DNA of 64,000 nt from NCBI GenBank assembly GCA_034004515.1, contig JAVEWN010000006.1, positions 6,615-70,614 on the forward strand, written 5' to 3'. Source of the DNA: Anaerolineales bacterium. GTDB taxonomy: Bacteria; Chloroflexota; Anaerolineae; Anaerolineales; Villigracilaceae. Numbering within the stretch: position 1 is the first letter of the stretch; each line of letters opens with the position of its first letter. This document shows positions 32,322 through 55,989 of the stretch, one piece after another. The position numbers were made by a program, and so were the translations under genes. The notes under the pieces are model-generated. The model searched no databases, was not told the DNA's origin, and saw only the letters and a list, made by a program, of their open reading frames with translations.

Positions 32322-32415
32322 GCATAGGGTGAGGAGGGCGGTTAAAGCCGCCTCCTCGCCCACGCCAAAACCGCACTCCTTAAAAGTTTGGATCGTATCC
32401 TGAAAGGAAAAATCG

Positions 32416-33111: not shown

Positions 33112-33147
33112 CCACGGGCTGCTGATCGCGCATTACAGGAGACTGAA

Positions 33148-33792: not shown

Positions 33793-33809
33793 AAAGAAAA
33801 GAGTTTGCG

Positions 33810-34922: not shown

Positions 34923-34939
34923 GCAAAAAGAGAGCACAG

Positions 34940-38928: not shown

Positions 38929-38936
38929 GAGTCTCC

Positions 38937-39671: not shown

Positions 39672-39673
39672 CC

Positions 39674-40114: not shown

Positions 40115-40136
40115 TAGTAGAGTCTCCTATCAGAAA

Positions 40137-40745: not shown

Positions 40746-40765
40746 AATTGTCCTTTCCACTCAAA

Positions 40766-42274
40766 TTAATTTGCAGGATACCCGTCCGGCAGCGGGCTGG
40801 TTTTATCAGGATCAGGGCCGGAAGCGCGGCCCATCGAAACGGGATCAATTTTCCCGTCGAGCGTGATGCGGCCTTTCTCCATCAAAATAACACGGCGCGC
40901 GTAGCGATGCACCAATTTATAGTCATGGGTAATCAGCAAAATGGCAGCGCCCTGGGCGTTGAGCTGCATCAGGCAATCCATCAGTTGTTGCAGGTGACGC
41001 CAATCCTGCCCGAGGGTAGGCTCATCGAGAATGACCAGGGCGGGGCGCAGGGCAATGCAGGAGGCCAGGGCGGTGCGCTGCTGCTGCCCAATCGACAGCG
41101 AAAATGGGCGGCGGGCGCGCAGCAGGAGCAGGTCTGCGCTGGCAAGCGTCTGTTCGTGGATGTGCTCGTCAAAGCTGCGATAATTGCGCGGGCCGAACGA
41201 AACTTCTTCCTCGACCGAATCGGTAAAGAGCTGGTCGGCAGGGTTTTGAAATAGCAGGGCAATATCCAGGCCGGGGCGCGGGCGGGATGTGCCGCGCACG
41301 AGCGTTTTCCCGCTCAGGGGTTTGAGCAGTCCCGCCGCGGCCAGGGCCAGGGTCGATTTGCCCGTGCCATTGTTGCCAACCAGGGCGACAAACTCGCCGG
41401 GGAAAATTTTCAGATCGATGTCGTGGATGATGGCCTGACCGTTGTAGCCGGCGGTAATATTTCGGAGGTCAAGCAAGGGCGGCTGACCGGCGGGAGGCTG
41501 CCCGTTCGGGACCAGCAAGCGCGACCAGTCCGCGAGCGACTCCATCGTCGGACGGCGCAAACCAAACTTGCGGCGAATTTCGTGATCGCCGAGCACCTCT
41601 TCAAAATTGCCTTGAGCCACCTGCTGGCCTTCGTCCAGCACCAGCACTTTGTCTGCAATCCGGCGCACCTCGGCCAGGCGATGTTCGATCAGCACGATTG
41701 TCAGGCCAAATTGACGGCGCAGGTTTTCGAGGGCCGCGATGACACTTTGGGTACCCGGCACATCCAGCGAGGCGGTCGGTTCATCCAGCACCAGCACCTG
41801 GGGACGCATGGCCAGGGCGGCCGCGATAGCGATCCGCTGAATCTGTCCGCCAGAGAGGTTGGCGGGCTTTTTATCGCGCAATTCGGTCAGCCCAAGCGCC
41901 TCGAGCGCCCAATTGACGCGGGCCGCAACTTCATCTTCTGGAAAGCCGAGGTTGCGCGGGCCAAAAGCAATTTCATCGTCCACGCGCAAGTGGAAAAGCT
42001 GGGCGCGCGGATTTTGGAAAACGACGCCGACCTTTTGCGAGATTTCTGCGAGAGGCGTGTGGAGGACATCCAGGCTGGCCACCGTCACCTGGCCCTCGAC
42101 CTGGGCCGGAATCGAATGGGGGATAATTCCCGTCAGGACACGCGCCAGGGTCGACTTGCCGCAGCCAGAAACGCCGGTCACAATCAGGCATTCAGCGGCC
42201 TTCAGGCTGAGCGAAACCTGCTGCAAAACCCGGCTGGGCCCGTACGAGACGGTTAAGTCAGAAACCTGGATCAT
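40766..42274 (-). CDS. Fused tandem ABC ATPase (EcfA1-EcfA2-like)
   Basis: Start moved to the ATG at 42274 (MIQVSDLTVSYG). Two Walker A motifs (GVSGCGKST, GNNGTGKST), two signatures (LSGGQIQR, LSIGQQQR) and two Walker B motifs (VLVLDEPT, LVILDEPT). Confidence 0.9.
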   Translation of the reverse strand: MIQVSDLTVSYGPSRVLQQVSLSLKAAECLIVTGVSGCGKSTLARVLTGIIPHSIPAQVEGQVTVASLDVLHTPLAEISQKVGVVFQNPRAQLFHLRVDDEIAFGPRNLGFPEDEVAARVNWALEALGLTELRDKKPANLSGGQIQRIAIAAALAMRPQVLVLDEPTASLDVPGTQSVIAALENLRRQFGLTIVLIEHRLAEVRRIADKVLVLDEGQQVAQGNFEEVLGDHEIRRKFGLRRPTMESLADWSRLLVPNGQPPAGQPPLLDLRNITAGYNGQAIIHDIDLKIFPGEFVALVGNNGTGKSTLALAAAGLLKPLSGKTLVRGTSRPRPGLDIALLFQNPADQLFTDSVEEEVSFGPRNYRSFDEHIHEQTLASADLLLLRARRPFSLSIGQQQRTALASCIALRPALVILDEPTLGQDWRHLQQLMDCLMQLNAQGAAILLITHDYKLVHRYARRVILMEKGRITLDGKIDPVSMGRASGPDPDKTSPLPDGYPAN

Positions 42275-42413
42275 GCCGCGGCCTGTGGGCCGCTGCGCCT
42301 GCCCATTCGAAGGCCCAAGACCTGGTGCGGGCACAGATGCGGATGAATTGCCGCGCTTTTTTGCAAGAAATCTTGTAAAGTTGTCACCTTTGCCTGACTT
42401 TCAAGTAAAGCGA

Positions 42414-42446
42414 TTAAAAAACTCGCCCGGCGGGAACCAGGCGAGT
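42414..42446 (-). terminator. Intrinsic terminator inside the 5' leader of the ECF operon (putative expression platform)
   Basis: Minus strand: ACTCGCCTGG-TTCCCG-CCGGGCGAGT (10-bp stem with one G-U pair) followed by TTTTTTAAT. Lies about 140 nt upstream of the start codon. Confidence 0.6.
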
Positions 42447-42459
42447 TTTGAGGCCGTTG

Positions 42460-42605
42460 CAGGGTCTCAGCTCCTTTCCAAGTCGATCCCATTTGCGGTG
42501 AGACTTCGGGAGGCCGCCCTGTTTCCGGGGAAACCCTTGCCCTGCGCGCAGGGCTGTCCAGTCTGCCATGACTTTCGTTTTAGACAGAAAAGATCGGAGT
42601 GATTT
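42460..42605 (-). ncRNA. Structured leader RNA; candidate Moco/Tuco riboswitch aptamer
   Basis: The minus-strand leader contains, in order, ACUCCGAUC, the hairpins GCCCUG-CGCG-CAGGGC and GUUUCC-GG-GGAAAC, GGCCUCCCGAAG, and UGGAAAGGAGC enclosed by a GUCUCA/UGAGAC helix. These strings match my recollection of the Moco motif core. Not verified with a covariance model. Confidence 0.45.
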
Positions 42606-42725
42606 TGGGGACAGGTTCTTTTGAACTCGTCCCAATTTGATGATACTGAACTTTGCGTTATTTCACATCATGATTTTGGATGGTTTTTCTTATTACCCGA
42701 AAGAGTGAAGCCGGAGCCGGGGGAT

Positions 42726-42941
42726 TCATTTGGTGAGTGATTTCTTCACCTTTTCCAATTCGTCGAGCATGTCCAGCTCTGTTTTTAACTCGTCAGAAAA
42801 GGAGGCGAGATAGGCTTTCACGTTGCGCACAAATTTACCGATCTCACGGGCAGAGCGGGCCAGCCGTTCAGGGCCAAGCACGATCGCTGCCAGCAAGAGA
42901 ATAACAAGCAGTTCATTGCTGCCAATCCCAAAAATATCCAT
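42726..42941 (-). CDS. Twin-arginine translocase TatA/TatB-family protein (second copy)
   Basis: MDIFGIGSNELLVILLLAAIVLGPERLARSAREIGKFVRNVK: an N-terminal TM helix, then G-P, then an amphipathic helix. Confidence 0.85.
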   Translation of the reverse strand: MDIFGIGSNELLVILLLAAIVLGPERLARSAREIGKFVRNVKAYLASFSDELKTELDMLDELEKVKKSLTK

Positions 42942-42942
42942 A

Positions 42943-43746
42943 TCAACCTCGCCTGACCAACGCTGCCAGGAGGATGCTGACCAGGTACAGGCCCATCAGC
43001 GGCAGCATCACCAATCCCATGTTGACCGGGTCAACCGTGGGTGTAACCGCCGCAGCGACGATCGCCATGATCACCAGGGCATAGCGCCAGCCTTCCAGCA
43101 GCTGTTTTGCGGAGACGAATTTCAGCTTGGCCAGGAACATAATCACCAGCGGCATTTCAAAACAGAGGCCGATCCAGAACATTAAGCGTGTGATGAAATC
43201 GAAATAGTTTTCAGGGCGAACCTGGGTGGTAATGCCCAGAAAATTCGTCAGGAAAGGGACTGCCGTCGGCAGCATTACAAACCAGGTGAAAGCCACTCCG
43301 CCCGCAAAGAGGATCGTCGCAAAAGGCACGATGAGCAGTAGCCAGCGGCGTTCGCTCGTTTTCAGGCCGGGCAGGATGAAGGCCATCAACTGATAAATGA
43401 TGAAGGGCATCCCCAGGATGAACCCGCCCAGCAGGGAAACCTTCATAAAGGTGGCGATGTTCTCGGTAATCTCGATTGAGATTAGTTTCTCCGTGCCGCC
43501 GATCGGCGCGGCCAGGTAATCGATAATCTGCTGCGCGAAGATAAAGCTGAAAGCGGTCGCGGCCACCAGCGCGGCAAACGCCTTGAACAGCCTGCGACGC
43601 AGTTCGTCCAGGTGCTGAAGCAAGGGGGCCGAAGTTTCAAGCTGGGTGCTGGCTTTTTGATGGGCGCGTCCAAATGCGCCCAAGTAGCCAGCCCAGTTCC
43701 GTTTGGCCTTCTTCTCCGCTAACGTTTCCTTGTCACGCGCAGACAT
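42943..43746 (-). CDS. tatC: Twin-arginine translocase subunit TatC
   Basis: LLQHLDELRRRL start region, six TM helices, conserved TatC layout. Confidence 0.9.
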   Translation of the reverse strand: MSARDKETLAEKKAKRNWAGYLGAFGRAHQKASTQLETSAPLLQHLDELRRRLFKAFAALVAATAFSFIFAQQIIDYLAAPIGGTEKLISIEITENIATFMKVSLLGGFILGMPFIIYQLMAFILPGLKTSERRWLLLIVPFATILFAGGVAFTWFVMLPTAVPFLTNFLGITTQVRPENYFDFITRLMFWIGLCFEMPLVIMFLAKLKFVSAKQLLEGWRYALVIMAIVAAAVTPTVDPVNMGLVMLPLMGLYLVSILLAALVRRG

Positions 43747-43926
43747 TTATTCCTTCGCGGCTTTATCCGCTGAGGCGTTCTCGTCTGGTTTGCCAGAGAG
43801 TCCTTCGCGGAATTCGCGCATCCCTTTCCCCAATTCACCAGCGATCTTGCCAATCCGTCCCACGCCGAAGAGCAGGACAATGATAACCAGGATGATGAGC
43901 AGTTCGGGCGTTCCCAAGCCAAACAT
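43747..43926 (-). CDS. tatA: Twin-arginine translocase subunit TatA (59 aa, missing from the ORF track)
   Basis: Hand translation: AAGGAG RBS, ATG at 43926, MFGLGTPELLIILVIIVLLFGVGRIGKIAGELGKGMREFREGLSGKPDENASADKAAKE, TAA at 43747-43749, directly abutting the tatC start. Confidence 0.85.
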   Translation of the reverse strand: MFGLGTPELLIILVIIVLLFGVGRIGKIAGELGKGMREFREGLSGKPDENASADKAAKE

Positions 43927-43936
43927 AGTATTCTCC

Positions 43937-45259
43937 TTATATATCCGATAAACGAAAATCTTTAGGGTAGGTCAGGTCAAGTTTGAGTTCCCGCAGGTAG
44001 GTTTCCCCGCCACGCTCCTCGAGGACGTTAGTCGATATACCCACCTCGATATCGAGTTTTTTCAACATCCTGATCTTGCTGACATGAAAAACAAGGCTGC
44101 CGGGCTTGTCACCGGCCCTGTAATCGCGATAGCCATTCTTTTGGAAAGCCGCCTTTGCGATTTCGGCGTCTTTGCCAAAGACCTTGGCCGCCTTCAAGAA
44201 GTAGTCGCGGCGTGAAAAGTATAGCACATTCATTTTAACGGGCTTCAGATCCTGCTGATAAATCTGGCCGGTGTGTTTGTTTTCGAGCGAGCAGTAATGG
44301 ACGCCCAGTTGCAGGCCTTGCTCCAAAGCAAACTCGATCAGGTCGAGGCAGGCCTGCTCACTGCCGGCCACAGGCAGCCCGCCGGCATACCAGTAGTTGT
44401 ACAGCACCCGGAAAGGCCGGGCTTTGATCAGATAGCCGCGCGCGCGGTATTCCTGGGCGTTGTGGAGCGGGAAACAAAATTCGAGCAAGTTGATTCCGAA
44501 GACGCCCAAACGCTCCAGTTCAAGCAAAATTTCCTGCATGGCCTCCCGCGAATCGGGTAAAACCGGCATCTCGACCATGACGTTCGGGATATACTCACGC
44601 GCCAGAGCGATCTGGTCGAAGGTGTGCTGGCGCGCGGTGGGCGTATCTTCAACCCGAATGCTGAAACGGATTTCATCCATGCCGGCCTCTTTGAAGGCCT
44701 GCAAGGTCTCACGCTCCAGCTGATCGCCGCAGGTGTAAAGACGCGTATAGGCTTTGGGAAAGTTCTGGCGGGCATGTTGGAAAAAGTTGATCGTTTCTTC
44801 TTTGTAAAGCAAGGGTTCACCGCCGGTCAGAGCCAAATGCTGGGCAGGCCCGCCGCTCTGTTGGAGGGCGTCCAGTTCGGCGGCTACGTCGCGTTTATGC
44901 TCGCGGTGATGCTGATAGTCTTCCTGGTTCGGGTTGAAACAGAAAAAACAATCGCGGTGACATTTAAGCGAGATAAAGAATGTTCTGCTGCCAATGCCGC
45001 GCTGGCAAGCCAGGCAACCGCCCGAGATGCGCTGGGTATAGACGCTTTTCGCATCATTGCGCACGATTGCGCCGCGTTTACCCAGATCAGACAGGCGCTG
45101 GGCCACCTGCTGGCTGTCATCCAGCGCTTCAACGTCGAGGCCCATCTGGCGCACCTGATCCATGAAATCCTGATAGATTTGGACGTACTGCCCGGCCTGT
45201 GACCTCAGTTCAGGGTTGCGGATGGAGGCCAGTGTACTCTCGTTGATCTCAATAATCAT
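43937..45259 (-). CDS. Radical SAM protein, unknown substrate
   Basis: CX3CX2C cluster CHRDCFFC at about residue 100 and a GGEPLL SAM-binding motif. Overlaps the upstream gene by 11 nt. Confidence 0.85.
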   Translation of the reverse strand: MIIEINESTLASIRNPELRSQAGQYVQIYQDFMDQVRQMGLDVEALDDSQQVAQRLSDLGKRGAIVRNDAKSVYTQRISGGCLACQRGIGSRTFFISLKCHRDCFFCFNPNQEDYQHHREHKRDVAAELDALQQSGGPAQHLALTGGEPLLYKEETINFFQHARQNFPKAYTRLYTCGDQLERETLQAFKEAGMDEIRFSIRVEDTPTARQHTFDQIALAREYIPNVMVEMPVLPDSREAMQEILLELERLGVFGINLLEFCFPLHNAQEYRARGYLIKARPFRVLYNYWYAGGLPVAGSEQACLDLIEFALEQGLQLGVHYCSLENKHTGQIYQQDLKPVKMNVLYFSRRDYFLKAAKVFGKDAEIAKAAFQKNGYRDYRAGDKPGSLVFHVSKIRMLKKLDIEVGISTNVLEERGGETYLRELKLDLTYPKDFRLSDI

Positions 45260-46451
45260 CGGGCTGCTCCACTGCTACAGGTTTGTTCCGTTTAAATCCG
45301 GGCGGCAGGACAGAACCAAACCGGTTTTCACGGCGGTATTGGCACAGCTCGCACAGCCGCGTGGCCCCGCGTTTTGCCGTCAGCGCGGCGCACTGCTCAC
45401 ATTTGATCAACTCACCCGCCTGGAGGACAGCGATGGCGTCCCCAAAAATATCCGCAAACTGGGGCGAACGGTCGAGGCGGATGGCATCCGGCGCGCAAAC
45501 GTGGACGCACAATCCGCAAGCCACGCAGTCCGGCGCGGCGAATTTTAGGGCGAAGGTGGTTTGGTCTTCATCTTTTTCAAACTGCAAAGCGCCGGTTGGG
45601 CAGGCCCGCGCGCAGGCGGCGCAGGCGGTGCAGGCTGCACTGACTTGGAGCGAGCCGAATCCAAACTCTCCCAGGTTTAAGTTTTCAGCCGCGCTGGGGG
45701 CAGGCAAATGGCCGAGTGCGTTGACGGTGCGTTTGTGGTTGCGCCCGGGGCGCGGGCCAGCCTGAGTCTGTCCATATTGCATGGCGCGCGCCATCGCAAC
45801 CTGACCCTGGCGGGCCAGCATCCGAAACAGGTCGCGCCGCGAGAGCGGCGGGTTGCTGGCGTTCCAGAGCGGGCGCTCGATTGCCTGGTCGAGGCCGGAG
45901 ACGCAGCGCAACGAGTCGCCGCGACCCCAGGCTGCAAGCAGCTCTTTGGCGCGCGCAACCTGGGCTTCGACTTCGGGCTGCAAAGCGGCCCATTTGCAAG
46001 TGGAACAGGCATCAGTCCGGGCCACGACCTGTTCGAGGCCGAGCGCGGCCAGGGCCAGGTAAGTCCCGCTCCCCAGCCCGGCGAGACAGCCTCGAACCTG
46101 GATGCCCACGCTCGTTTGGGCGATGCCGGCCTCGCAAGCAGGATTCAACTCACAAAGCAGTTCGAGGGTCTGATCTTCCAGGTGGGTGACAGCGTTCAGA
46201 AGCGGCGTGACCGCATCGTCCGCGCTGTACGCGCCGACCGGGCAGACCGTCAGGCAGGCCAAACAGCCCTCGCATTTTTTCGGGTCGAGGCTTGGCGGTT
46301 GGCCGGGCGTAATCGCGCCGACCGGGCAGATATTAAAACATGCCGCGCACTCTGAATGCTGGTCACGCGTATGCAGGCAGCGTTCAGCATCCAAAATGAC
46401 TTGCGAACGGTCAAGTGAGGCAAACCGTTCGGCAGCATCGAGCAGACTCAT
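45249..46451 (-). CDS. Multi-cluster 4Fe-4S ferredoxin-domain protein (about 400 aa)
   Basis: Start moved to the ATG at 46451 (ATGA overlap with torD-like). Motifs CAACFNICPVG, CEGCLACLTVCPVG, CTACAACARACPTG and CVACGLCVHVCAPD, plus extra Cys pairs. Confidence 0.8.
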   Translation of the reverse strand: MSLLDAAERFASLDRSQVILDAERCLHTRDQHSECAACFNICPVGAITPGQPPSLDPKKCEGCLACLTVCPVGAYSADDAVTPLLNAVTHLEDQTLELLCELNPACEAGIAQTSVGIQVRGCLAGLGSGTYLALAALGLEQVVARTDACSTCKWAALQPEVEAQVARAKELLAAWGRGDSLRCVSGLDQAIERPLWNASNPPLSRRDLFRMLARQGQVAMARAMQYGQTQAGPRPGRNHKRTVNALGHLPAPSAAENLNLGEFGFGSLQVSAACTACAACARACPTGALQFEKDEDQTTFALKFAAPDCVACGLCVHVCAPDAIRLDRSPQFADIFGDAIAVLQAGELIKCEQCAALTAKRGATRLCELCQYRRENRFGSVLPPGFKRNKPVAVEQPDDY

Positions 46452-47152
46452 AGCGTGGCTACCTTCGGCAGGGGCACTTGCAGCATCTGGGCCGCGGCCA
46501 ACAGCGCGCCATGCGCCAGATGGGCCATTCCGCGATAGAAATCGGTCGAGGCGTGCTGCTTGGCCAGGGTCGCCCAAGCCGGCCCCCAGCGCAGGAGATG
46601 CTCCAAGAGAAAATCACGCTGAGCTTGCAGGACATCGTCCAGCGATTGCTGATCTGCCTGTTCGATTGCCCGCAAGCCGCGCGAGGCAAGGTGAGACACA
46701 AAAAGCAGTTCCAAACCGATGTGATCGTCTGGTTCCTTGTTAATTTGTTCGATCTGCATCCCAAAACGCGCATACCAGTTGCGCACCTGAATGGTTTGCT
46801 CCTGGAAGACGAGCCGCTCGTTGTTGAAGTAAACCGATTCCCAGGGAACCGCGGGCATGGAACCCAAGCCAATAAACAAGCGGGTATAGTCCATTCTCAG
46901 ATCATTAAATTTCTGGTCAGAAATGCCGCCGGCCTGTTCGTCCGCCCACTTTTGGAGAATTTCCAAGCCGCGCACGATTTCGATCTGGGCTGCGCCAAAC
47001 GGCGATTCGCTAAAGACCTCGTCGCTGACCAATTGATTCAGCCATTCACGGTCTGGCTCCTGGTAGAGCGCTCTGCCGAGCAAGCTGAATAGTAATACTT
47101 CTCCGACAAGTGCTGCCGTTAAGTCGTCTGTTAAGATCATTTTATTGTTCAT
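46448..47152 (-). CDS. TorD/DmsD-family molybdoenzyme maturation chaperone
   Basis: DYTRLFIG...PWESVY...DHIGLELLF pattern typical of the TorD/DmsD family. Confidence 0.8.
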   Translation of the reverse strand: MNNKMILTDDLTAALVGEVLLFSLLGRALYQEPDREWLNQLVSDEVFSESPFGAAQIEIVRGLEILQKWADEQAGGISDQKFNDLRMDYTRLFIGLGSMPAVPWESVYFNNERLVFQEQTIQVRNWYARFGMQIEQINKEPDDHIGLELLFVSHLASRGLRAIEQADQQSLDDVLQAQRDFLLEHLLRWGPAWATLAKQHASTDFYRGMAHLAHGALLAAAQMLQVPLPKVATL

Positions 47153-47164
47153 TGCGTCTCCAAT

Positions 47165-50140
47165 TTAATTCTGGCGGATTTTGAAGCGCCGCCAGGCTAA
47201 GTATAGGCCTCTGATTAAGAATGCTGCAATAACAATCAGCACCACTATATACGTAACGAAGGTCACAGCTTGGGCAATGTTAATTCCAATTTGGGCCAGG
47301 CGGTCACGGATTTGGGCCGGGAGGGAGGGTTCCCATTTGGCTGGCAAGAGGGTTTCATCCCCGCGTGGAAGCGACACAACCAGCGTTCCCTCATGAGCGA
47401 CCGGGATGGGGAGATTCTGTTCGGAAAGGAAAACCATTTCTCCGGCTCTGACTGGCACTTCCTGCCCGTCCCGCGTCCGAATGAGGGCTTCTCCCTCGAA
47501 CAAATACAACCAACCGCCCCGCGCCGGGTGATATTCCAAAGCAAAGGAACCGCGCGTTAGCGTGATCTGTTTGCCCGCCACGCGGAAATTGAGTGCTTCG
47601 GCCTTTTGGTTCTGGCCCCAGACCCAGCCGGTTGCCAGGCTGCGAATCCCCAGCGATTCTTCGGAGATCGTCTCAGGCGGTAGGGTGATGTTTCCATCTC
47701 CCCAGGGCAGGAGCCTGGTTTCTGGCTGGCGAACCAGTGCAAAGTCGATCTTCTGGGCCGGCCCGTCCGCCAGGTCCACCACCCGGGCCTGGCTGTAATA
47801 ACCGGGCGCGTTGGCAATCAGGGTGGCTTTTAGCGGGTCGAGGCCAAAGATGCGATACTCCCCGTTAAGCGGATTAACGGGGGAGGCCGGGTCTGAGGCG
47901 GCTGTCGCCCAGCCAAAGGGCAGCGAGACTCCATCCTGGCCGGACAAGCGCCCGGCAGCCCAGGCGTTGCCAGTCTTCTGGATCTCGATTGTGATCTCAG
48001 CTTGAGCATCTTTGGTCAGATCAACCTGGGAGGCGGCCGCCTGGTAGCCGCGTCTGTTCGCGGATGGATCCAGAAACAGCTGGTATTTACCGCTCGGCAG
48101 GTCGGCGAAGGTGAAATTTCCATTTTCCGCCAGCGTGGTGTGGGAGGTTCCATCCGGCAGATGGACAGCCCAGATCTCGAACGGTTCGAGCCGGTCGGGG
48201 CTGGTCAACTGTCCGCTGATCTGGCCCTGACTGGTGCGGACAAAGACTGTCACCGGATCGTGGCCGGCTGCGCCGGGCGCAAGCTCTACCACAACCGATT
48301 CGAGGCTCTCGTACAAATATCCATTCAGGGAAGTGGGCGGAACGCTGATCGTGTATTGGGTCGCGGCCTGGGAAAGGGCTTCGAGGGACAGCCGGGCAAT
48401 GCCGTTCGCGTCGCTGGTTTCGCCTGCAAATTGGTCGCGCCATTCATACAGGATGGCCGCCGCGCGCACAGAAAGCCCGGAAATGGGCTCGCCATTCTTG
48501 CTATCAAGCACGCGCACGTCCATTTCCAAATCCCTGCCCGTATCGACAGTAAACCAGCGTTCGTCCGAAGCCTGCCCGCCATTCGGAGAAGCAGCCGTGA
48601 TGAGAAGTTGAACCTGTCCATCTGGCAGGGAAGCCTGGCTTTTGAATTCCTCGTGACAGGAGGCGCAATCCGGGTCAGCAGCTTTGGCTCCGGCCACGAT
48701 CATGGCCCCCTCCGGGTTGATGGCAAGGCTGAAGGTAAATGCACCATCCGACTCTGGTTGGGTGAATAATTCGGCAGTCCGTTGCCCGCCCGACCAGATT
48801 TCCATTCTGACGGTAACTTCGTTTTGCGGGCCAGTATAAAATACGCGCCCAACCACAAATGCCGGAGAAAAATTGCGTCCGCTGCTATACAACGTTTCCC
48901 CATTGGTGGGGTAGTTGATCTGAACCGCGAGATTTTCAGACGAGATCGGAAGCCCGACCGGGTCGGCGGGTGGAAGATAGGTAATCGGAGATACCGCCTT
49001 GCTTGAGCGCGGGAAGAAGGGGCACCAGTTCATGCTGACGCCATTGACATGGCACGATTCGCAGCTCATTTGAATGACGCGCGGCGGGGCGCTCATCCCG
49101 ATTGGATGGTGACAGGCCCGACAGTCGCTGGGAGTATCTGCCTGCGGAAAATCTGCGGCGCTCGGGTTACTTAAATCCCACAGCCGGAGCGTGTTGTCGC
49201 TCGAACCCGAAGCGACGGTTTTTCCATCCGGGGCGAAGGCGACGCTGTAAACAAAATCCGTGTGTCCCACCAGGGTGCGCAGCAGGCGGCCATCAGCCGT
49301 GTCCCATAACTTGACGGTGGCATCGACAGACCCGCTCGCCAGGCTTTTGCCGTCGGGTGAGAAGGATAAACTCAGGACGCTGGCGCGATGGTCAGCAAGG
49401 AAATATTTTATCTGGCCCGAAGCAACATCCCATAAAATGACTTTGGTATCGAACGCGCCCGAAGCCAGCGTTTTGCCATCGGGCGAGAAGGCCAGCCCCC
49501 GCACCCAATCCTTGTGCCCCTTAAGCGTTTTGACCAAACTCCCGCTTGAAGCATTCAACAACTGGACGGTGGTATCCTGCAAGCCCACCGCGAGCAGCTC
49601 GTCATCCGGCGAGAACACCAAGACTCGCGCCCCAGGCGAACCGGCGATGGACAAGGCCTCGCTCCCGCTTTCAACGTTCCAAATCCGGATGATGTCATCA
49701 TCCGCAGCGGTCGCAAGCAAAGCGCCATCCGAAGAGAAGGCAATACTGCGCACCCAGCCGTTATGGGCGGCAATCGTTCGGATTTCCTTTTCGTCAGAAA
49801 GACGCCAAAAGCGGAGTGTGCCATCGAACAATCCCGCAGCGACGGTCTGTCCATCCGGGGAAAAAGCCACGCTGCGCGCCCAGACTGCGGTGCTAAAAAA
49901 ATGCGCCTGTGAGAATTGCTGTGTATCAAAAATGGAAACGCCCGCAGATCTGGCAACTGCCAGCCATTTGCCATCCGGGGAATAAGCGACCGAATTGGCG
50001 ATGTCGCGTCCGGCGCTGGAAAGAGTAATAACACGGCTGCCGCCATCCGGAGACAACTGGAAAGCGGTGGAAGGAGTCGGAAAGCAGAATGAAATCAGAA
50101 TAATAACTGAAAGGGTCAGTAAATAGCGTTTGAGAGCCAT
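47165..50140 (-). CDS. Fusion protein: signal/anchor, 7 WD40 repeats, three CxxCH heme motifs, Ig-like domains, a FecR-like domain, C-terminal TM helix
   Basis: Start moved to the ATG at 50140 (MALKRYLLTLSVIILISF). WD40 repeats are of the form GH.D.V.S.AFSPDGK.LASGS.D.T..LWD. CRACH is encoded at 49109-49123, CESCH at 49049-49063 and CASCH at 48653-48667. The FecR-like stretch is GKQITLTRGSFALEY...GEALIRTRDGQEVPVRAGEMVFL. The C-terminal helix is VTFVTYIVVLIVIAAFLI. Confidence 0.8.
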   Translation of the reverse strand: MALKRYLLTLSVIILISFCFPTPSTAFQLSPDGGSRVITLSSAGRDIANSVAYSPDGKWLAVARSAGVSIFDTQQFSQAHFFSTAVWARSVAFSPDGQTVAAGLFDGTLRFWRLSDEKEIRTIAAHNGWVRSIAFSSDGALLATAADDDIIRIWNVESGSEALSIAGSPGARVLVFSPDDELLAVGLQDTTVQLLNASSGSLVKTLKGHKDWVRGLAFSPDGKTLASGAFDTKVILWDVASGQIKYFLADHRASVLSLSFSPDGKSLASGSVDATVKLWDTADGRLLRTLVGHTDFVYSVAFAPDGKTVASGSSDNTLRLWDLSNPSAADFPQADTPSDCRACHHPIGMSAPPRVIQMSCESCHVNGVSMNWCPFFPRSSKAVSPITYLPPADPVGLPISSENLAVQINYPTNGETLYSSGRNFSPAFVVGRVFYTGPQNEVTVRMEIWSGGQRTAELFTQPESDGAFTFSLAINPEGAMIVAGAKAADPDCASCHEEFKSQASLPDGQVQLLITAASPNGGQASDERWFTVDTGRDLEMDVRVLDSKNGEPISGLSVRAAAILYEWRDQFAGETSDANGIARLSLEALSQAATQYTISVPPTSLNGYLYESLESVVVELAPGAAGHDPVTVFVRTSQGQISGQLTSPDRLEPFEIWAVHLPDGTSHTTLAENGNFTFADLPSGKYQLFLDPSANRRGYQAAASQVDLTKDAQAEITIEIQKTGNAWAAGRLSGQDGVSLPFGWATAASDPASPVNPLNGEYRIFGLDPLKATLIANAPGYYSQARVVDLADGPAQKIDFALVRQPETRLLPWGDGNITLPPETISEESLGIRSLATGWVWGQNQKAEALNFRVAGKQITLTRGSFALEYHPARGGWLYLFEGEALIRTRDGQEVPVRAGEMVFLSEQNLPIPVAHEGTLVVSLPRGDETLLPAKWEPSLPAQIRDRLAQIGINIAQAVTFVTYIVVLIVIAAFLIRGLYLAWRRFKIRQN

Positions 50141-50209
50141 GAATTGTCCTGATAAGGACAGGGGCGGATATAAATCCGCCCCTGTCCTGTGTAAAGAGCA
50201 AGCAGGCAA

Positions 50210-51106
50210 CTACAGACCAATACCCACTTTCGTTGCGTAGAAGATGTAGCGTCCCATCGTCTCGCCTAGCAGGACAAGGATGAAGGCGCTGTAGACCACA
50301 TTCGCCAGGACCGCTTCCCGGCCCACGACAGAAGCATTCTTATACATATAGAAGGCCAGCAAGCCCGCTCCGGCGAAGACAAAGACCAGGCGCAGAACAA
50401 ACATGCCGCCCAGCGGGCCGATCATCAGACCGAGGCTCTCCAGCGCGGCTGCGCCCTGGGTGGAAAGGTAGATGGCGTAGACTGGCAGGACTACGAACTC
50501 AACGCCCACCAAGACGATCGCCGCCAGCGCGATACCACGCAGGGCGTCGCGAAACAGGCTGAGTTGGATCTCATCTTTGGAACGGGTTGCCACCAAGGCC
50601 ACGGCCACCAGCAACGCGCCCAGCAAAAGGGAGGTCGTGATGAAGGTGATCGGCGTGGCAAAGGTATTCCAAGCCGGTTGGGTGCGGATCATGTAGACCT
50701 GGGCCATGGCATAGGTCTGAAACAAGCCGACCGCGGCGGCAACCCAGCCAATGACCGTGCGAACGGAATCGGATGATATTTTGCGCCACTGCATGACGGT
50801 GTAAATCCCCGCCAGGATCACAAAGATCACGACAATAATCACCTCACGGCTCAGCCAGGATGAGCCCAGGTTGGGGACAGCCCGGGTAATGTTAAGCGGG
50901 TTTCCCAGGTGCAGCAGGGAGGCCAGCAGAGCCAGCAGAATGATGGGCACGACGATAAAAAGCGGCTTATCGGTCAGCCGATCGGCCTGTTCCAGGCCCG
51001 CTTTGCGGACAGCATAGGTGCGAACGATCAAGAGGATGATCAACGCGCCAGTTGAAACCTGTCCGAGGATAGTAAAGATGAGCAAAGACCATTCACGGAT
51101 ATCCAT
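50210..51106 (-). CDS. DmsC-type membrane anchor subunit (8 helices)
   Basis: Polytopic protein immediately after the DmsB-like gene. MDIREWSLLIFTIL..., SSWLSRE and MAQVYMIRTQPAWN motifs are shared with the paralog at 55069-55989. Confidence 0.8.
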   Translation of the reverse strand: MDIREWSLLIFTILGQVSTGALIILLIVRTYAVRKAGLEQADRLTDKPLFIVVPIILLALLASLLHLGNPLNITRAVPNLGSSWLSREVIIVVIFVILAGIYTVMQWRKISSDSVRTVIGWVAAAVGLFQTYAMAQVYMIRTQPAWNTFATPITFITTSLLLGALLVAVALVATRSKDEIQLSLFRDALRGIALAAIVLVGVEFVVLPVYAIYLSTQGAAALESLGLMIGPLGGMFVLRLVFVFAGAGLLAFYMYKNASVVGREAVLANVVYSAFILVLLGETMGRYIFYATKVGIGL

Positions 51107-51118
51107 ATCACTTCTCCT

Positions 51119-51733
51119 TTAATCGATATTCAGAACTTTGCCGCCGCCAGATTTGGAGGTGCGGGTATCCTTGTGGGGAGTGTAGACGATGGCGGGCCGG
51201 GTCAGGGACGGGTCAGGCATGGGAGCCGGGTTGTTGAGCACTCCGTGTTTGGCTTTCAGTTCATTGATATCGCCATATTCCAGTGCGCGGTAAGGGCAGG
51301 CTTCGACACAGGCCGGCTTTCCGCCCTTTTCCTGAAGCTCGATGCAGAAATCGCACTTCGTCATAACGCCCGCATCCTCGTTGAACTGCGGCGCACCGTA
51401 CGGGCAAGCCCAGGAGCAGTAGCGGCATCCGATACATTGATCGGGATTGATGAGAACGATCCCATCCTCCCGTTTGCTGATGGCAGAGGCCGGGCAAACT
51501 TCCATGCAGATCGGCTGTTCGCAGTGCATACAGGCGGTGGAGACGAAGTAATGGAAGACGCCGCTCGGTACGCTCTGGTCGCCATCCTGAATCCATTCGC
51601 CGCCGCCGTATTCGTAGACACGCCGCCAGCGCACCCCGGTCGGTAAATCTTTGCGGTCTTTGCAGGCAATCTCGCAGGCTTTACAGCCTGTGCAGTTTGC
51701 CAGGTTAACATAGAAACCAAGTTGTTTAGCCAT
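51119..51733 (-). CDS. 4Fe-4S electron-transfer subunit of a DMSO-reductase-family enzyme (DmsB-like)
   Basis: Four Cys groups: CTGCKACEIAC, CMHCEQPICMEVCP, CIGCRYCSWACPYG and CDFC...CVEACP. Confidence 0.9.
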   Translation of the reverse strand: MAKQLGFYVNLANCTGCKACEIACKDRKDLPTGVRWRRVYEYGGGEWIQDGDQSVPSGVFHYFVSTACMHCEQPICMEVCPASAISKREDGIVLINPDQCIGCRYCSWACPYGAPQFNEDAGVMTKCDFCIELQEKGGKPACVEACPYRALEYGDINELKAKHGVLNNPAPMPDPSLTRPAIVYTPHKDTRTSKSGGGKVLNID

Positions 51734-51744
51734 GATAATCTCCT

Positions 51745-54153
51745 TTAAGCCTTCTCAACCTGCACCAGGTTGGTGTGTTGCGGGTTGCCCTTGGCAAAAG
51801 GTGTCGGGTGATACTTGGTTAACGTGTTCGTACAACCACGAATATCCACACCATTTTCGTCCGGGGTAAACCAGGCCCCTTGCGGCAGGCTGGTGACGCC
51901 TGGGCGCAGGCGGTTTGTAACATACGCCGGAACCCGAACCACGCCGCGATCATTGAATATTTTGACCATATCGCCGTTCTTGATATTGCGCAGATCGGCA
52001 TCGAGCGTGTTCATCCATAAGGACTGAACATGCGCTTCCTGCAAAGCAGCCACATTATCAAAGGTGGAATGGGAACGTTGAACCGCGTGGTGACCAACCA
52101 TCAAAAGCGGGTACTTCTCGCGCAGCGGATCGCTGACCCCTTCCCACTCAGGGATGTATTGCGGAATGGCAGGAATCTCTTGCGGGCTATTCAGCGCGGC
52201 CAGGGTCGGCGAGTAGACCTCGATTTTACCGGTCGGGGTTCTGAGCGGATTGGCAACCGGGTCTGCGCGGAAGTCTTTGCCCGCAATGATCCCGCCGCCG
52301 CCAGTTTTTTTGTAATAGCCGATCTCTTTGAACTCTTCGTAGGTTGGGAAGTCTTCGTTCTTTTCCCGGGCAACCGCTACCATATCGCGCAGCCACTCTT
52401 CACGGGTGGTGTGCCCGTCGCGGAATTCTTCGCCCAGGCCGAGACGGTCTGCCAGCTGTTCGGCCACCCAAAGCACATCTCTGGTTTCGTAGAGCGGCTC
52501 GATTAGCTGATGGTTGAAGAGCACAAAGTTCGATTTGCCTTCGCCGTTTCCACCGGTGATGTTTTCGGCTTCGAAGTGGGTGGTATCAGGCAAGAGGATA
52601 TCTGCCATCTTGGCGCTGTGGGTCATGACGACATCTGCGACGACGATAAATTCCAACTTGGTGTCGTCTTGCAGCATTTTGGTGGTGGCGTTGACGTCCG
52701 AGTGCTGATTGGTGATGCAGTTGCCAGCCCAGTTCCACATGAATTTCATGTCTGAGCTCATTTTGTCCGCGCCCTTAATCAGGTCACGCAGCCCGGAGGT
52801 CATCTCGTGGCCGCGCTCGATGAAATCGGGCCACATATAAACAGAGATGGTGGTTTTTACGGGATTTTCGCCAGCCGGGAAACTGCCGATGCTGATGTTT
52901 GTGCCGCCGCTTGGGCGAGTGCCCGTGCCGCCGCCAGGGATACCGAAATTGCCGGTCATCGCGGCCAGGATGGGCAGGGCCCGGACTGGCTGTTCGCCAT
53001 AGGCCCGGCGCTGCATTCCCCAGCCCTGAATCATGGCACAGGGTTTGGTGCTGGCAATCTCATGCGCCAGTTTAATGATGCGTTCGGCAGGAATGCCGGT
53101 GATGGGGGCAGCCCAGGCGGGCGTTTTCGCGGTTTTATCCGCGCCGCGCCCCATGATATAAGCCATGTATGAGGAATTAGGCGGAGCGCCTTCGGGCAGC
53201 GTATCTTCGTCAAAGCCGACCGCGTGGGTTGCCATGAACTCCTTATCGTACATCTCATCCTTGACCATGACATACGCCATGGCGTCCATCAAGGCGTTGT
53301 CGGTTCCAGGGTAGATCGGAATCCAGTCTGCTTCCAAGGCAATCGCTGTGTCATTGTAGACCGGGTCCACGACAATGAACTTGGCCCCGGCTTCTTTTGC
53401 CATCAAGTAATGGTAGCCCATGCCTTTGCCGCCGGCTCGGGTAACCATGCCGTTGTCAGAGACGAGCAGCACCAATTTGGAATTGACGAGGTCATCGGCG
53501 GAATTGCTGCCCATGTTGGTAATCAGAGGCATGGCAGCAGAATAGCAAGCCGTGCTGTAAGTTCCATAGAAATTGACGTAGCCGCCGAACAAGTGCATCA
53601 TCCGCGCAATCGGGCCAACGCCCTTATAGGTGTTGTCGATCCCGCCCGCAATCTGACCGGTAGCGTAGTTGTAGTAAATTGATTCGTTGCCGTATTTTTC
53701 TTTAACTTCCTTCAACTTATTCGCAATCGTATCCAGGGCTTCTTCCCAGGAAATGCGCTCAAATTTTCCTTCGCCGCGTTTGCCAACCCGTTTCATGGGG
53801 TATTTCAAGCGTTCTGGCGAATAAACGCGCCATCGTTGAGAGCGGCCGCGCAAACACGGGATCGCCTTGGGTTGTTCAAAGGTGTCGACCGGGTCCTGGT
53901 CCGGCAACATGCGTACAACCGTGCCATCTTTGACTTCGGCCCAAAGAATACAGCGGCTGCCGCAGTTATGATAGCAGCTGGTGGTCATAATCTCGCTGCT
54001 CTCGGCAGCAGCAGCCTGAGCGGCTTTCAAGCCATAACTTACGCCTCCGGCCAATGCAGCGGTGCCGCCCAATGCCGCGCTCCACTTCAAGAAGCTGCGC
54101 CGGGAGAGAACCGTATCGGTCAGGGTTTTTGTTAGGAAATCCTTTTCAGTCAT
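51745..54153 (-). CDS. Molybdopterin oxidoreductase catalytic subunit (DmsA/YnfE-like), Tat-exported
   Basis: Twin-arginine signal SRRSFLKWSAALGGTAALAGG. N-terminal FS0 cluster motif CYHNCGSRC. 802 aa with DMSO reductase family layout. Substrate not assignable. Confidence 0.9.
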   Translation of the reverse strand: MTEKDFLTKTLTDTVLSRRSFLKWSAALGGTAALAGGVSYGLKAAQAAAAESSEIMTTSCYHNCGSRCILWAEVKDGTVVRMLPDQDPVDTFEQPKAIPCLRGRSQRWRVYSPERLKYPMKRVGKRGEGKFERISWEEALDTIANKLKEVKEKYGNESIYYNYATGQIAGGIDNTYKGVGPIARMMHLFGGYVNFYGTYSTACYSAAMPLITNMGSNSADDLVNSKLVLLVSDNGMVTRAGGKGMGYHYLMAKEAGAKFIVVDPVYNDTAIALEADWIPIYPGTDNALMDAMAYVMVKDEMYDKEFMATHAVGFDEDTLPEGAPPNSSYMAYIMGRGADKTAKTPAWAAPITGIPAERIIKLAHEIASTKPCAMIQGWGMQRRAYGEQPVRALPILAAMTGNFGIPGGGTGTRPSGGTNISIGSFPAGENPVKTTISVYMWPDFIERGHEMTSGLRDLIKGADKMSSDMKFMWNWAGNCITNQHSDVNATTKMLQDDTKLEFIVVADVVMTHSAKMADILLPDTTHFEAENITGGNGEGKSNFVLFNHQLIEPLYETRDVLWVAEQLADRLGLGEEFRDGHTTREEWLRDMVAVAREKNEDFPTYEEFKEIGYYKKTGGGGIIAGKDFRADPVANPLRTPTGKIEVYSPTLAALNSPQEIPAIPQYIPEWEGVSDPLREKYPLLMVGHHAVQRSHSTFDNVAALQEAHVQSLWMNTLDADLRNIKNGDMVKIFNDRGVVRVPAYVTNRLRPGVTSLPQGAWFTPDENGVDIRGCTNTLTKYHPTPFAKGNPQHTNLVQVEKA

Positions 54154-54387: not shown

Positions 54388-55044
54388 CTATCCGTCGCGC
54401 GGCATCACCAAGCCGTGTTTCATGGCATACGTAGCTGCCTGAGTCCGATTCTCAAGCTGTAATTTTCCCAAAATACTTTTTAGATGGCTTTTAACCGTGT
54501 TAATCGAGATCGAAAGCTTCTCGGCAATGATCTGGTTCGTCGCGCCGCTTGCAACCAGTCGCAGCACAAATAGCTCTCTTTCGGTCAGGGCCTGTTCGCC
54601 CTTCTCGTCATCCACCATCCGGTTGGCAACCGCCTTCAAGAGTTTTCCGGCAATGGCGCGGGTCATAGCCGGCTCGCCGGAGATGACTCCCTTCAGGAGG
54701 TCGAACAATTCATCCGCGTCCAGGCTTTTCAGCAAATAACCTGCGGCTCCCACCTGAACCGCCTCGTATAGATGTCCATCTCTTTCGGAGGAGGTCAGCA
54801 TCACAATCGAGATTTCAGGAAAGCGGGCGTGGATCTTCTTGGCAGCCTGCAAACCATCCATCTCCGGCATATAAATATCCATCAGGATCACGTCCGGGTG
54901 CAGTTGCTCAGCCATCTGAACGGCTTCTTCGCCGGTTTCCGCCTCACCGATCACTTCGACCAGGTCCTGACGGGTTCGCATCAAGCTGATCATCCCCTGG
55001 CGGAACAGTTTATGGTCATCGGCAATCAATACTTTTATGGGCAT
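54388..55044 (-). CDS. NarL/FixJ-type response regulator (REC + LuxR HTH)
   Basis: KVLIADDHKLFRQG and DVILMDIYMPEMDG receiver motifs. C-terminal HTH LTERELFVLRLVASGATNQIIAEKLSISINTVKSHLKSILGKL. Confidence 0.92.
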   Translation of the reverse strand: MPIKVLIADDHKLFRQGMISLMRTRQDLVEVIGEAETGEEAVQMAEQLHPDVILMDIYMPEMDGLQAAKKIHARFPEISIVMLTSSERDGHLYEAVQVGAAGYLLKSLDADELFDLLKGVISGEPAMTRAIAGKLLKAVANRMVDDEKGEQALTERELFVLRLVASGATNQIIAEKLSISINTVKSHLKSILGKLQLENRTQAATYAMKHGLVMPRDG

Positions 55045-55068: not shown

Positions 55069-55989
55069 TTAAACACCAATCCGAACATGGGTCGCATAAA
55101 AAAGGAAGCGGCCCAGAATCTCGCTGACCAATATAACAATACAGGCGCTGTAAACGGGCACCATTAACTCTTTCAGATCTTGATCGGACTGAATGGCCCG
55201 GAAAACCGAGCTTGCCAGCCAGATAATTCCAGCCAGCGGCAGCCCCAGTCGCAGCACCAGCAAGGGCAGATATAAACTTGTCAATAATTCAAAACTGGCT
55301 TGGGCCCAGGCGTCCCCGGCCCGCAAGAAAGAAATCTGATAAAAGTTGAGGGCCAGAATACCCAGCCAGGCCAAAATCGAAGCATAGGTGGCCCCAACCA
55401 AAATTTTACGAACCAGCAAGCTGCGCTGACCAAACTGCTGGCCTTCAAGCACCGTTGAAAAGGATAGATCCATCAGCAGGATGGTGGGTAAAGCAATAAA
55501 GCCGAGCGTGAACACGGAAGCATAAAAAGAAAAAACTGTGATCGGTGAATTCCAGGCTGTCTGGGTCGGCAGCAGATAAATCTGCGCCATGCAGAAGACC
55601 ATAATCAGCCCAAACCCAATCGCCAGCCAGCCCAGCCCGGAAATGAGTTTGTCGTGACCGGCTGTAAACCAATGCAGCCAGAGCAGCCAGGTAATTGTCA
55701 GCGAAAAGAGCAAGGTAAAAACGATCTCGCGGCTCAGCCAGGAGGAGCGGAAGTTTAACACGGCCAAAAATGACCGAAAAGGCTGACTCAAATGAAAATG
55801 CGACCCGACTATGGCCATGACAATCGTAATTGAGATGATTGCAAGCGGAATTTTGGCAATCTGCCTGAGGGCAGGGTAGCCGAGGCTGGCGAGGTGGCGG
55901 GCCCGGATAATCCAGAGCAGCATAAAAACGCCGACAGACAACTGCATCAAGATGGTATAGACCGGCAAAGCCCATTCACGCACGTTCAT
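55069..55989 (-). CDS. DmsC-family polytopic membrane protein (paralog of 50210-51106) located between kinase and regulator
   Basis: Start set to the ATG at 55989 (GAGGTG upstream; MNVREWALPVYTILMQL). Shares SSWLSREI, MAQIYLLPTQTAWN and GRFLFYATHVRIGV with the operon DmsC (SSWLSREV, MAQVYMIRTQPAWN, GRYIFYATKVGIGL). Confidence 0.75.
   Translation of the reverse strand: MNVREWALPVYTILMQLSVGVFMLLWIIRARHLASLGYPALRQIAKIPLAIISITIVMAIVGSHFHLSQPFRSFLAVLNFRSSWLSREIVFTLLFSLTITWLLWLHWFTAGHDKLISGLGWLAIGFGLIMVFCMAQIYLLPTQTAWNSPITVFSFYASVFTLGFIALPTILLMDLSFSTVLEGQQFGQRSLLVRKILVGATYASILAWLGILALNFYQISFLRAGDAWAQASFELLTSLYLPLLVLRLGLPLAGIIWLASSVFRAIQSDQDLKELMVPVYSACIVILVSEILGRFLFYATHVRIGV

Follow-up and report, generated by a model that had tools for sequence, protein, structure and literature searches.

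What an exported protein that joins a WD40 propeller to c-type haem motifs is doing in an operon for a dimethyl sulfoxide (DMSO) reductase-type enzyme is the question raised by a locus of an Anaerolineales bacterium (Chloroflexota; Villigracilaceae), analysed here over a window of 64,000 nucleotides (assembly GCA_034004515.1, contig JAVEWN010000006.1, positions 6,615 to 70,614 of the forward strand; all coordinates below are those of the window unless a homologous locus is named). The gene in question, referred to as gene X (minus strand, 47165–50140; 991 amino acids (aa) plus a stop codon), is predicted to encode an exported, C-terminally anchored tri-haem protein and has dmsC upstream and the DmsD/TorD chaperone gene downstream, in keeping with the gene of about 990 aa that an initial annotation, made from the letters alone, had placed between DmsC-type and TorD genes. 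An electron conduit, a scaffold and a sensor had been proposed as its role. With a probability of about 0.55, we consider X to be an extracytoplasmic, membrane-anchored c-type cytochrome and, as such, the dedicated fourth subunit of a quinol-coupled molybdoenzyme of DmsABC type in Chloroflexota. An electron-carrying subunit is favoured because the haem sites are invariant, the topology is that of an exported protein, the gene is linked to dmsC, and its N-terminal part is interchanged with multi-haem cytochromes in related loci.

The open reading frame (ORF) of X spans 47165–50209 on the minus strand. The ATG at 50140 (MALKRYLL...) is assigned as the start codon because AGGA lies 7 nt upstream of it and homologues begin at the same position. 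A TTG at 50209 was rejected as the start: it overlaps the dmsC stop codon, it would enclose a hairpin described below, and homologues use the ATG. A protein identical to X (P0001) was found in Logan assemblies.

The three CxxCH motifs of X begin at residues 340 (CRACH), 360 (CESCH) and 492 (CASCH), and their minus-strand codons (49109–49123, 49049–49063 and 48653–48667, respectively) are exactly where they had been claimed to be. Six of the seven cysteines of the mature protein fall within these motifs. The first two motifs belong to a di-haem module (aa 336–392, DCRACHH ... CESCH ... NWCPFFPR; 48965–49135, minus strand), which was delimited by conserved motifs and BLASTP and lies in a region (aa 330–400) that is mostly coil in the AlphaFold2 model. 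The third motif sits on a loop of an immunoglobulin (Ig)-like beta-sandwich (aa 404–535; 48536–48931, minus strand), recognized in the AlphaFold2 model, with which the conserved core of the family begins. Residue conservation was assessed in an alignment of 60 sequences, with 54–58 homologues covering the haem-motif columns. All six haem cysteines as well as H344, H345, H364 and H496 are conserved in 100% of these homologues, and C373 and M902 are conserved at 93% and 97%, respectively.

The same pattern holds over a wider sample. An exhaustive profile search with the WD40-less region of X recovered 230 representatives (50% identity clusters) at E <= 1e-30, nearly all from Chloroflexota metagenome-assembled genomes (MAGs), and the 104 representatives of at least 590 aa were retained for comparison of the core. 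At haem site 3, C495 and H496 are present in 100% and C492 in 95% of them, the site taking a CxxxCH form in a few. M902 (codon 47435–47437), which lies in a FecR-fold domain next to the membrane, is conserved at 93% and is the only conserved methionine in the family core; no histidine or methionine beyond H496 and M902 is conserved across the 104 representatives. The motifs, whose conservation the initial annotation had singled out as a check, are invariant in the homologues of X, an invariance that is not due to chance.

Export and transmembrane (TM) topology were judged by sequence inspection and hydropathy. A Sec-type signal peptide is predicted at aa 1–27 (50060–50140, minus strand), with a KR n-region that lacks a twin arginine, a hydrophobic core and the junction STA/FQ; the AlphaFold2 model has a helix at aa 2–19 followed by a disordered c-region, and the hydropathy scan places a hydrophobic segment at the same position. 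At the other end, an amphipathic helix and a single TM helix (aa 939–985; 47186–47326, minus strand) are indicated by two structure models, the hydropathy scan and conservation. The TM helix itself occupies aa ~954–985 and leads into the basic tail RRFKIRQN (47165–47185 including the stop codon, minus strand), of which 6–8 residues would be cytoplasmic. The N-terminal helix and the C-terminal TM helix with its basic tail had both been noted at the outset, and all full-length homologues begin with a segment resembling a signal peptide and end in a hydrophobic helix followed by a basic tail. Instead of a cytoplasmic location, the Sec signal peptide, the C-terminal anchor and the positive-inside tail point to the outer face of the membrane. 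Few stretches of X are as well conserved as the outer half of its TM helix, AQxVTFVTY (T960 and Y964, 100%; Q957, 97%; T963, 95%; F961, 90%), which the locus finder chose as the most conserved peptide of the family; such conservation argues for a specific intramembrane partner. At the level of sequence, X has the hallmarks of both a c-type cytochrome and a WD40 propeller. No cytochrome c maturation genes were found in the 64-kb window; the presumed capacity of the host to make c-type cytochromes is drawn from sister loci and from general knowledge of Anaerolineae.

The composition of the family reveals which part of X is conserved. A search with the WD40-less part returned 61 clusters, most of ~985–1030 aa and of the same architecture, which their sources name only 'hypothetical', 'WD40 repeat protein' or 'carboxypeptidase regulatory-like'. 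Among the 104 core representatives, 87 are only ~600–650 aa long, and 83 of these 87 have a single haem motif, which corresponds to that of haem 3; the remaining 17 are long forms, 14 of them with exactly three haem motifs. Conservation across the family attaches to the mono-haem C-terminal portion of ~620 aa, its core, and not to the five-part fusion as a whole. Another of the long forms, P0129 (907 aa), joins eight haem motifs to the core without an intervening domain and so represents a third type of cytochrome–core linkage.

In short-form loci, the place of the WD40–di-haem part is taken by cytochromes. Two genes lie between dmsC and the core in L005/L017, L018, L019, L021, L029 and L030, and the end-truncated locus L028 also has both cytochrome genes. 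This arrangement holds for most short-form loci with an upstream flank, the exceptions being L020, where the core directly follows dmsC, L006/L016, where a separate WD40–di-haem gene occupies this place, and L023, which has a single ORF with six motifs. The first of the two multi-haem cytochromes (MHC1) is a hepta-haem protein of ~325 aa, the second (MHC2) has 255–356 aa and 7–9 haems, and both exceed the Pfam cutoffs for Cytochrome_C7 and c3_2. The C-terminal end of MHC1, ...CVRCHHP-(15)-CEACHEQGAALFWCEYFQR, aligns with aa 336–392 of X (BLASTP with MHC1 of L018, E 2e-11). X itself stays below the thresholds of two cytochrome families, reaching 22.1 bits for PF14537 with its di-haem module (cutoff 25) and 18.3 bits for PF14522 (cutoff 24.8); MHC1 of L018 passes both, and its equivalent module reaches 30 bits on PF14537. 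MHC2 is weakly DmsE/NrfB-like, with a DmsE-family match (E 2e-10) that is far below cutoff, and it has a lipobox in the three loci whose sequence was read (L005/L017, L018 and L019). The lipobox reads LIGC or ILGAC (MHC2 at L018 8836–9906, L019 8878–9930 and L005 9166–10011), and MHC2 is probably lipid-anchored on the outer face of the membrane. Among the roles first suggested for X, the electron conduit gains most from these results, because sister loci have two multi-haem cytochromes in the WD40 slot, one of which ends in a homologue of the di-haem linker.

A neighbour-joining tree built on the core region groups the WD40-bearing forms in a single clade of 20 of the 104 tips (16 long forms, two more that are truncated, and two that may be split). 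Judged from this tree, the WD40 fusion is a derived minority form with a single origin, and the mono-haem anchored core is ancestral and usually accompanied by ~14–16 further haems. In one Anaerolineales lineage, a WD40 propeller replaced all but the last two of these haems and became fused to the core.

These data bear directly on the most sceptical explanation, namely that X is a gene-model artefact in which separate genes have been fused or that its CxxCH motifs are fortuitous and bind no haem, serving for instance as metal-binding cysteine pairs. It is true that in the L006/L016 lineage one gene encodes the WD40–di-haem part (431 aa) and another the core (633 aa), and that X does not reach the cytochrome profile cutoffs. 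Nevertheless, the reading frame of ~990 aa is intact in ~50 clusters from independent assemblies, the cysteines and histidines of all three motifs do not vary, and the di-haem module is homologous to a bona fide multi-haem cytochrome. We regard this explanation as extremely improbable, and the conservation data already bring it close to refutation.

Synteny was established from individual homologue look-ups, a genome scan, a metagenome scan, and tblastn of the operon proteins of the window against all loci. The genome and metagenome scans, which yielded 18 and 13 loci, respectively, used a single TM-helix peptide pattern, and the taxonomic range may be underestimated as a result. In every locus with an upstream flank (~20 distinct loci), X, or its WD40 or multi-haem partner genes, follows dmsC. 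The association with molybdoenzyme genes on which the initial annotation had placed weight is therefore without exception, homologues of X always being syntenic with dmsABC. The family was found in Anaerolineales, among them Ca. Villigracilis, in Ardenticatenaceae and in further Chloroflexota MAGs. Two matches outside the phylum were not accepted as evidence of spread: one to Acidobacteriota, on a single 3.9-kb contig, looks like a binning error, and one labelled 'Gammaproteobacteria' corresponds in gene order and tblastn coordinates to a Chloroflexi CFX2 locus and is likewise a probable binning error.

The enzyme beside X is of the DmsABC type. The products of dmsA (51745–54153, minus strand; 802 aa, with a Tat signal), dmsB (51119–51733, minus strand) and dmsC (50210–51106, minus strand) match TIGR02166 with 964 bits (cutoff 778), TIGR02951 with 240 bits (cutoff 214) and PF04976 with E 3e-31, respectively. 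X itself has no match to DmsA, B, C or D in Pfam or NCBIfam and, as had been supposed, is not a standard subunit of the DMSO reductase family. DmsC keeps the residues of the Escherichia coli menaquinol site (H65, S82, S85 and E87), and coupling to the quinone pool is likely to be retained because H65 and E87 are in place. Because the quinol site is kept and DmsA is accompanied by genes for a chaperone, Tat translocation and the molybdenum cofactor, the complex appears to be a real quinol-coupled molybdoenzyme with an added component.

Downstream of X, on the same strand, lie dmsD (46448–47152), a polyferredoxin gene of ~400 codons (45249–46451), a radical S-adenosylmethionine (SAM) gene of ~440 codons (43937–45259) and tatA-tatC-tatA (42726–43926), a maturation block (42726–47152) that is conserved beside X in most loci. 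The dmsD, polyferredoxin and radical SAM genes usually come after X. For the radical SAM protein, no curated family scored above cutoff and no sequence match was found in the PDB. Most flanked loci have both the polyferredoxin and the radical SAM gene with dmsD; L028 lacks the ferredoxin, L029 lacks the radical SAM gene, and L030 has neither next to X. The two products may form a maturation system for the molybdoenzyme or for X.

The 69-nt spacer between dmsC and X contains a perfect 15-bp hairpin (50155–50188, minus strand), and the folded 91-nt stretch around it (50130–50220) has a z-score of −7.4. Equivalent hairpins occur in the same spacer of seven other loci (L002, L004, L006, L011, L013, L025 and L027); they are GC-rich, perfect and 10–16 bp long, most lack a U-tract, and their structure is kept while their sequence is not. 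The hairpin is probably an intra-operon mRNA stabilizer or attenuator that sets the ratio of DmsABC to X.

Both the hairpin, which sets X apart from dmsABC, and the position of X at the head of the dmsD-ferredoxin-radical SAM-tatACA block would suit an extracytoplasmic assembly or maturation factor that works with DmsD, the polyferredoxin, the radical SAM protein and Tat while remaining outside the mature complex. The gene order in other loci speaks against it: the dmsD-ferredoxin-radical SAM block has moved upstream of dmsA in L006/L016, L012/13/22, L027 and L043, yet X stays with dmsC. Multi-haem partners such as those in other loci would moreover make no sense for a chaperone, and no outer-face haem protein is known among the assembly factors of Tat or molybdoenzymes. 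A role in assembly is accordingly judged unlikely.

The predicted structure of X provides a view of how its parts are arranged. An AlphaFold2 model built on 60 homologues has a mean predicted local distance difference test score (pLDDT) of 87.6 and a predicted template-modelling score (pTM) of 0.69, which for a multidomain protein of 991 residues suggests a defined, compact arrangement. The C-terminal pieces were scanned separately with Pfam, as WD40 models swamp a scan of the whole protein, and aa 800–991 were modelled separately (pLDDT 82), since Foldseek with the whole model gave only WD40 matches. The canonical WD40 propeller (aa 35–325; 49166–50038, minus strand) is unambiguous: PF00400 scores 200.9 bits (cutoff 27), the model has seven blades at pLDDT above 90, bearing out the seven repeats of the initial annotation, and Foldseek aligns it with the WD40 domain of prokaryotic PkwA (5yzv) at a template-modelling score of 0.94–0.96 and 39% identity. 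Between the haem-bearing Ig-like domain and the membrane-proximal domain lie three further beta-sandwiches (aa 538–805; 47726–48529, minus strand) of CarboxypepD_reg/transthyretin-like type, seen in the AlphaFold2 model; the beta-sandwich segments of the initial annotation are recognized here by PF13620 at 61–67 bits (cutoff 32.3). A PDB sequence search with the core found no real relative, giving only a trivial match to the Ig repeats of NOMO. A profile of the haem-bearing Ig-like domain found only CxxCH-driven matches in the PDB, and a Pfam scan of 24 such domains gave nothing above noise.

The next domain (aa 806–915; 47396–47725, minus strand; pLDDT 90–97) is a cupin-like beta domain beside the membrane. 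With the model of aa 800–991, the top four PDB matches in Foldseek are periplasmic domains of the FecR family (4m0h_A, 4m0h_B, 4m0n and 6ovk_R), at E 1.7e-6 to 7.4e-6 for 4m0h/4m0n and 1.8e-5 for PupR 6ovk_R, and the matches that follow are cupins at E > 0.1. The FecR-like block described at first is thus correct as a fold and is not borne out as a sequence family, there being no match to FecR (PF04773) even at E <= 10 and only weak ones to cupins (Cupin_2, E 2e-4). X aa ~806–915 and the FecR/PupR domains share the same beta-fold beside a single TM helix (probability 1.0; root-mean-square deviation 3.5–5.2 Å over 121–131 columns; identity 13–15%), but the helix follows the domain in X and precedes it in FecR/PupR.

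This resemblance is the starting point for a sensor, in which haem or WD40, or both, would signal a redox state or ligand through the FecR fold and TM helix to the neighbouring two-component system. That system comprises, upstream of dmsA on the minus strand, a histidine kinase with six TM helices and GAF and HisKA_3 domains (56003–58054), a second DmsC paralog (55069–55989) and a LuxR-type response regulator (54388–55044). The conserved TM helix and the presence of a membrane-embedded kinase and a DmsC paralog upstream in many loci would fit such a role, but the cytoplasmic tail has only 6–8 residues, FecR has the reverse topology, the gene for X belongs to the structural operon and not with the regulators, and L004, L021 and L029 keep X even though they are without the DmsC paralog. 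X has no anti-sigma domain, and genes for extracytoplasmic function (ECF) sigma factors or TonB-dependent transducers are absent from the cluster in the window and from homologous loci. The sensor option put forward initially is weakened by these observations to the point of being quite improbable. In the narrower form of a FecR-type anti-sigma regulator it was rejected, as only the fold is shared, with neither PF04773, an anti-sigma domain nor sigma factor or transducer genes to go with it.

As a side observation, the kinase-DmsC paralog-LuxR regulator unit also occurs in L001, L002, L005, L011, L018, L019 and L025. The paralog retains the quinol-site residues of E. coli DmsC (H65, S82, S85 and E87) and, as a quinone-binding membrane protein free of cofactors that lies inside a two-component unit, may act as a quinone-pool co-sensor for the operon.

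Domains suited to interaction or to forming a stalk (WD40, four beta-sandwiches and the FecR fold) account for most of X, and a scaffolding or spacing role must also be considered, in which X would organize Tat-exported DmsAB or its partners in the envelope of a monoderm filament, its haems stabilizing the fold or persisting as cytochrome relics that carry no electrons. The replacement of haem-rich cytochromes by WD40 and a hairpin that suggests separate expression of X from dmsABC would both agree with this. Decaying relics, however, would not be expected to keep their haem motifs across more than 100 diverse sequences, and the ancestral partners of the core are true multi-haem cytochromes. 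In canonical systems, DmsC alone suffices to anchor DmsAB (PMC8076601). A purely structural role is rather doubtful on this balance, although we hold it more probable than a role in assembly or sensing.

If X is instead the electron-carrying fourth subunit, a working model can be outlined. X would be exported unfolded via Sec, and three covalent haems would be added on the outer face of the membrane. The polar face of the TM helix (Q957, T960, T963 and Y964) and the FecR-fold domain may dock onto DmsC, DmsB or both. Haem 3 is a candidate for His496/Met902 ligation and a position near the membrane, which requires the chain to fold back; the fairly high pTM of the model is compatible with the compact shape needed. 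H345 is a likely distal ligand of a neighbouring haem, as in CxxCHH motifs of c3/c7 type. Haem 3 and the di-haem module would then link the Fe–S chain of DmsB and the quinol site of DmsC to partners outside the complex, and in the ancestral, commoner form the outward link would continue through two separate multi-haem cytochromes with ~14–16 haems. Because WD40 is redox-inert, the propeller of X is more likely to recruit a partner than to conduct electrons, and is probably a protein-docking platform and not a wire.

Several observations weigh against an electron-carrying subunit. Haem attachment, complex formation and redox activity of X are all deduced from sequence, and X itself falls under the Pfam cutoffs for cytochrome families. 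Four conserved histidines and one methionine serve three haems, so that at least one haem would be left without a candidate sixth ligand. In the sequence, four domains separate haem 3 from the TM helix. The exchange of ~12–14 haems for a redox-inert WD40 propeller fits poorly with an outward wire in the WD40 lineage. Finally, the hairpin may lower expression of X relative to DmsABC, which would be unusual for a stoichiometric subunit, and X lies at the border where the structural genes give way to those for maturation (dmsD, ferredoxin, radical SAM and tat).

Comparison with known systems places the proposed subunit in a familiar context. ActA/ActE of alternative complex III (ACIII), QrcA of Qrc and DsrJ of DsrMKJOP carry haem c on the positive side of the membrane, to which a single TM helix or a lipid anchor holds them. 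Like them, X is encoded beside genes for a four-cluster Fe–S protein and a cofactor-free, quinone-interacting membrane subunit, and the presumed path, from a quinol site through Fe–S clusters and haems to an external partner, would be common to the X complex and to ACIII, Qrc and DsrMKJOP. No sequence homology between X and ActA/ActE, QrcA or DsrJ was detected, and neither the Ig-like haem domain, the beta-sandwich stalk, the FecR fold nor WD40 is known from ActA, QrcA or DsrJ. Whereas ACIII and Qrc have cofactor-less DmsA-like modules, the DmsA encoded with X is catalytically equipped (Tat signal, DmsD, molybdenum uptake and MobB). Complexes with NrfD-like subunits (ACIII, Qrc, Nhc, DsrMKJOP and Nrf) combine the same Fe–S and membrane modules with haem-c subunits, and a review of these subunits gives no additional subunit for DmsABC (PMC8076601). 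By analogy, quinone-coupled Fe–S/molybdoenzyme complexes with haem-c subunits are an already known kind, to which X would add DmsABC by a similar logic.

Other likenesses are more partial. Shewanella DmsEFAB has DmsAB outside the outer membrane, fed by a porin-cytochrome conduit and without DmsC. The X loci similarly couple an enzyme of the DMSO reductase family to multi-haem cytochromes, MHC2 being weakly like DmsE (TIGR03508), but they retain a DmsC with an intact quinol site, occur in Chloroflexota, and encode in X a protein without a counterpart in DmsEFAB. EbdC, SerC and DdhC, the gamma subunits of type II enzymes of the DMSO reductase family, are soluble, bind haem b non-covalently, and belong to enzymes without a DmsC anchor; they embody the same idea of a mono-haem beta-sandwich subunit linking the Fe–S subunit of a molybdoenzyme to external cytochromes, and no sequence similarity to X was found. 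Exported proteins that combine a beta-propeller with c-type haem include cytochrome cd1 nitrite reductase, quinohaemoprotein alcohol dehydrogenases and hydrazine synthase alpha/beta. In these enzymes, the propeller is a cofactor or active-site domain (for d1 haem or pyrroloquinoline quinone) and is not a G-beta-type WD40. X shares with these proteins an exported propeller joined to c-type haem domains and has a weak NCBIfam match to hydrazine_beta (E 2e-7); its propeller, in contrast, is of canonical WD40 build, most similar to that of cytoplasmic PkwA (5yzv), shows no sign of a cofactor site, and stands in for cytochromes where theirs forms the catalytic centre.

The novelty claimed at first for the combination is upheld. 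No curated family covers X beyond generic WD40 and CarboxypepD_reg, and no description of X or of a cytochrome-subunit DmsABC in Chloroflexota was found in the literature; the cluster is not mentioned in a paper on extracellular electron transfer in Ardenticatena (PMC5808234), in Chloroflexi genomics papers (PMC3971608; bioRxiv 2021.08.23.457424) or in the review of NrfD-like subunits (PMC8076601).

The remainder of the operon and its surroundings offer further observations. Two DmsA subtypes share one DmsB/DmsC/X backbone: the canonical 802-aa DmsA/YnfE type (964 bits on TIGR02166) is found in the window, L002, L011, L025 and L032, and a divergent type of 863–903 aa scores 504–590 bits, below the cutoff of 778. 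In the dmsA genes compared (window 51745–54153, minus strand; L001 5811–8408; L006 4288–6999; L013 4811–7400; L018 3609–6200), the DmsA subtypes are 34–37% identical as against 52–59% for DmsB, which suggests an exchange of the catalytic subunit and different substrates. In L005/L017 (3903–6510; MFD09964, a 'Chloroflexia' MAG), an otherwise intact operon has its dmsA split into five ORFs, reflecting either frameshift errors of a long-read assembly or a pseudogene. The cluster at 38425–43926 (minus strand), with its own TatA-TatC-TatA, an ATP-binding cassette (ABC)/CbiQ transporter, a small Oxidored_molyb-like protein and MobB, forms a self-contained molybdoenzyme island whose uptake genes are of the molybdate type. 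The opposite strand (30315–32321 and 33810–38319, plus strand) encodes a protein of 668 aa whose propeller repeats are of Reg_prop/SGL type, two products that match nothing in Pfam and a 636-aa protein ending in a peptidoglycan-binding domain; no link between these genes (30315–38319) and the dms cluster was found.

Textbooks present DmsABC as a quinol-coupled molybdoenzyme of three subunits, a picture that a fourth, conserved haem-c subunit, if confirmed, would alter. X, which is combined either with multi-haem cytochromes or with a secreted WD40 propeller, would add a new architecture to respiratory complexes of the Fe–S/NrfD type. The finding offers an unusual exported WD40–cytochrome fusion and a haem-bearing Ig-like domain without known relatives in Pfam or the PDB, and the natural variants of X (fused, split, cytochrome-containing and bare core) constitute a ready set for dissecting its function. 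More tentatively, and as a possibility to which we give the smaller part of our confidence, DmsABC-X with either multi-haem cytochromes or WD40 may constitute an unrecognized respiratory complex of monoderm Chloroflexota that joins the quinone pool to a molybdenum active site and to an electron route outside the cell. On this reading, the exported WD40 would be a receptor of a new kind that brings a redox partner from outside, or a substrate that is insoluble or bound to protein, to the three haems of X as a relay, and the Ig-like haem domain, with His/Met ligation reaching across to the FecR-fold domain, would be a new cytochrome fold. X would also point to an unexplored electron route in Anaerolineae and Ardenticatenales, groups that abound in sediments and wastewater sludge and in which extracellular electron transfer is suspected.

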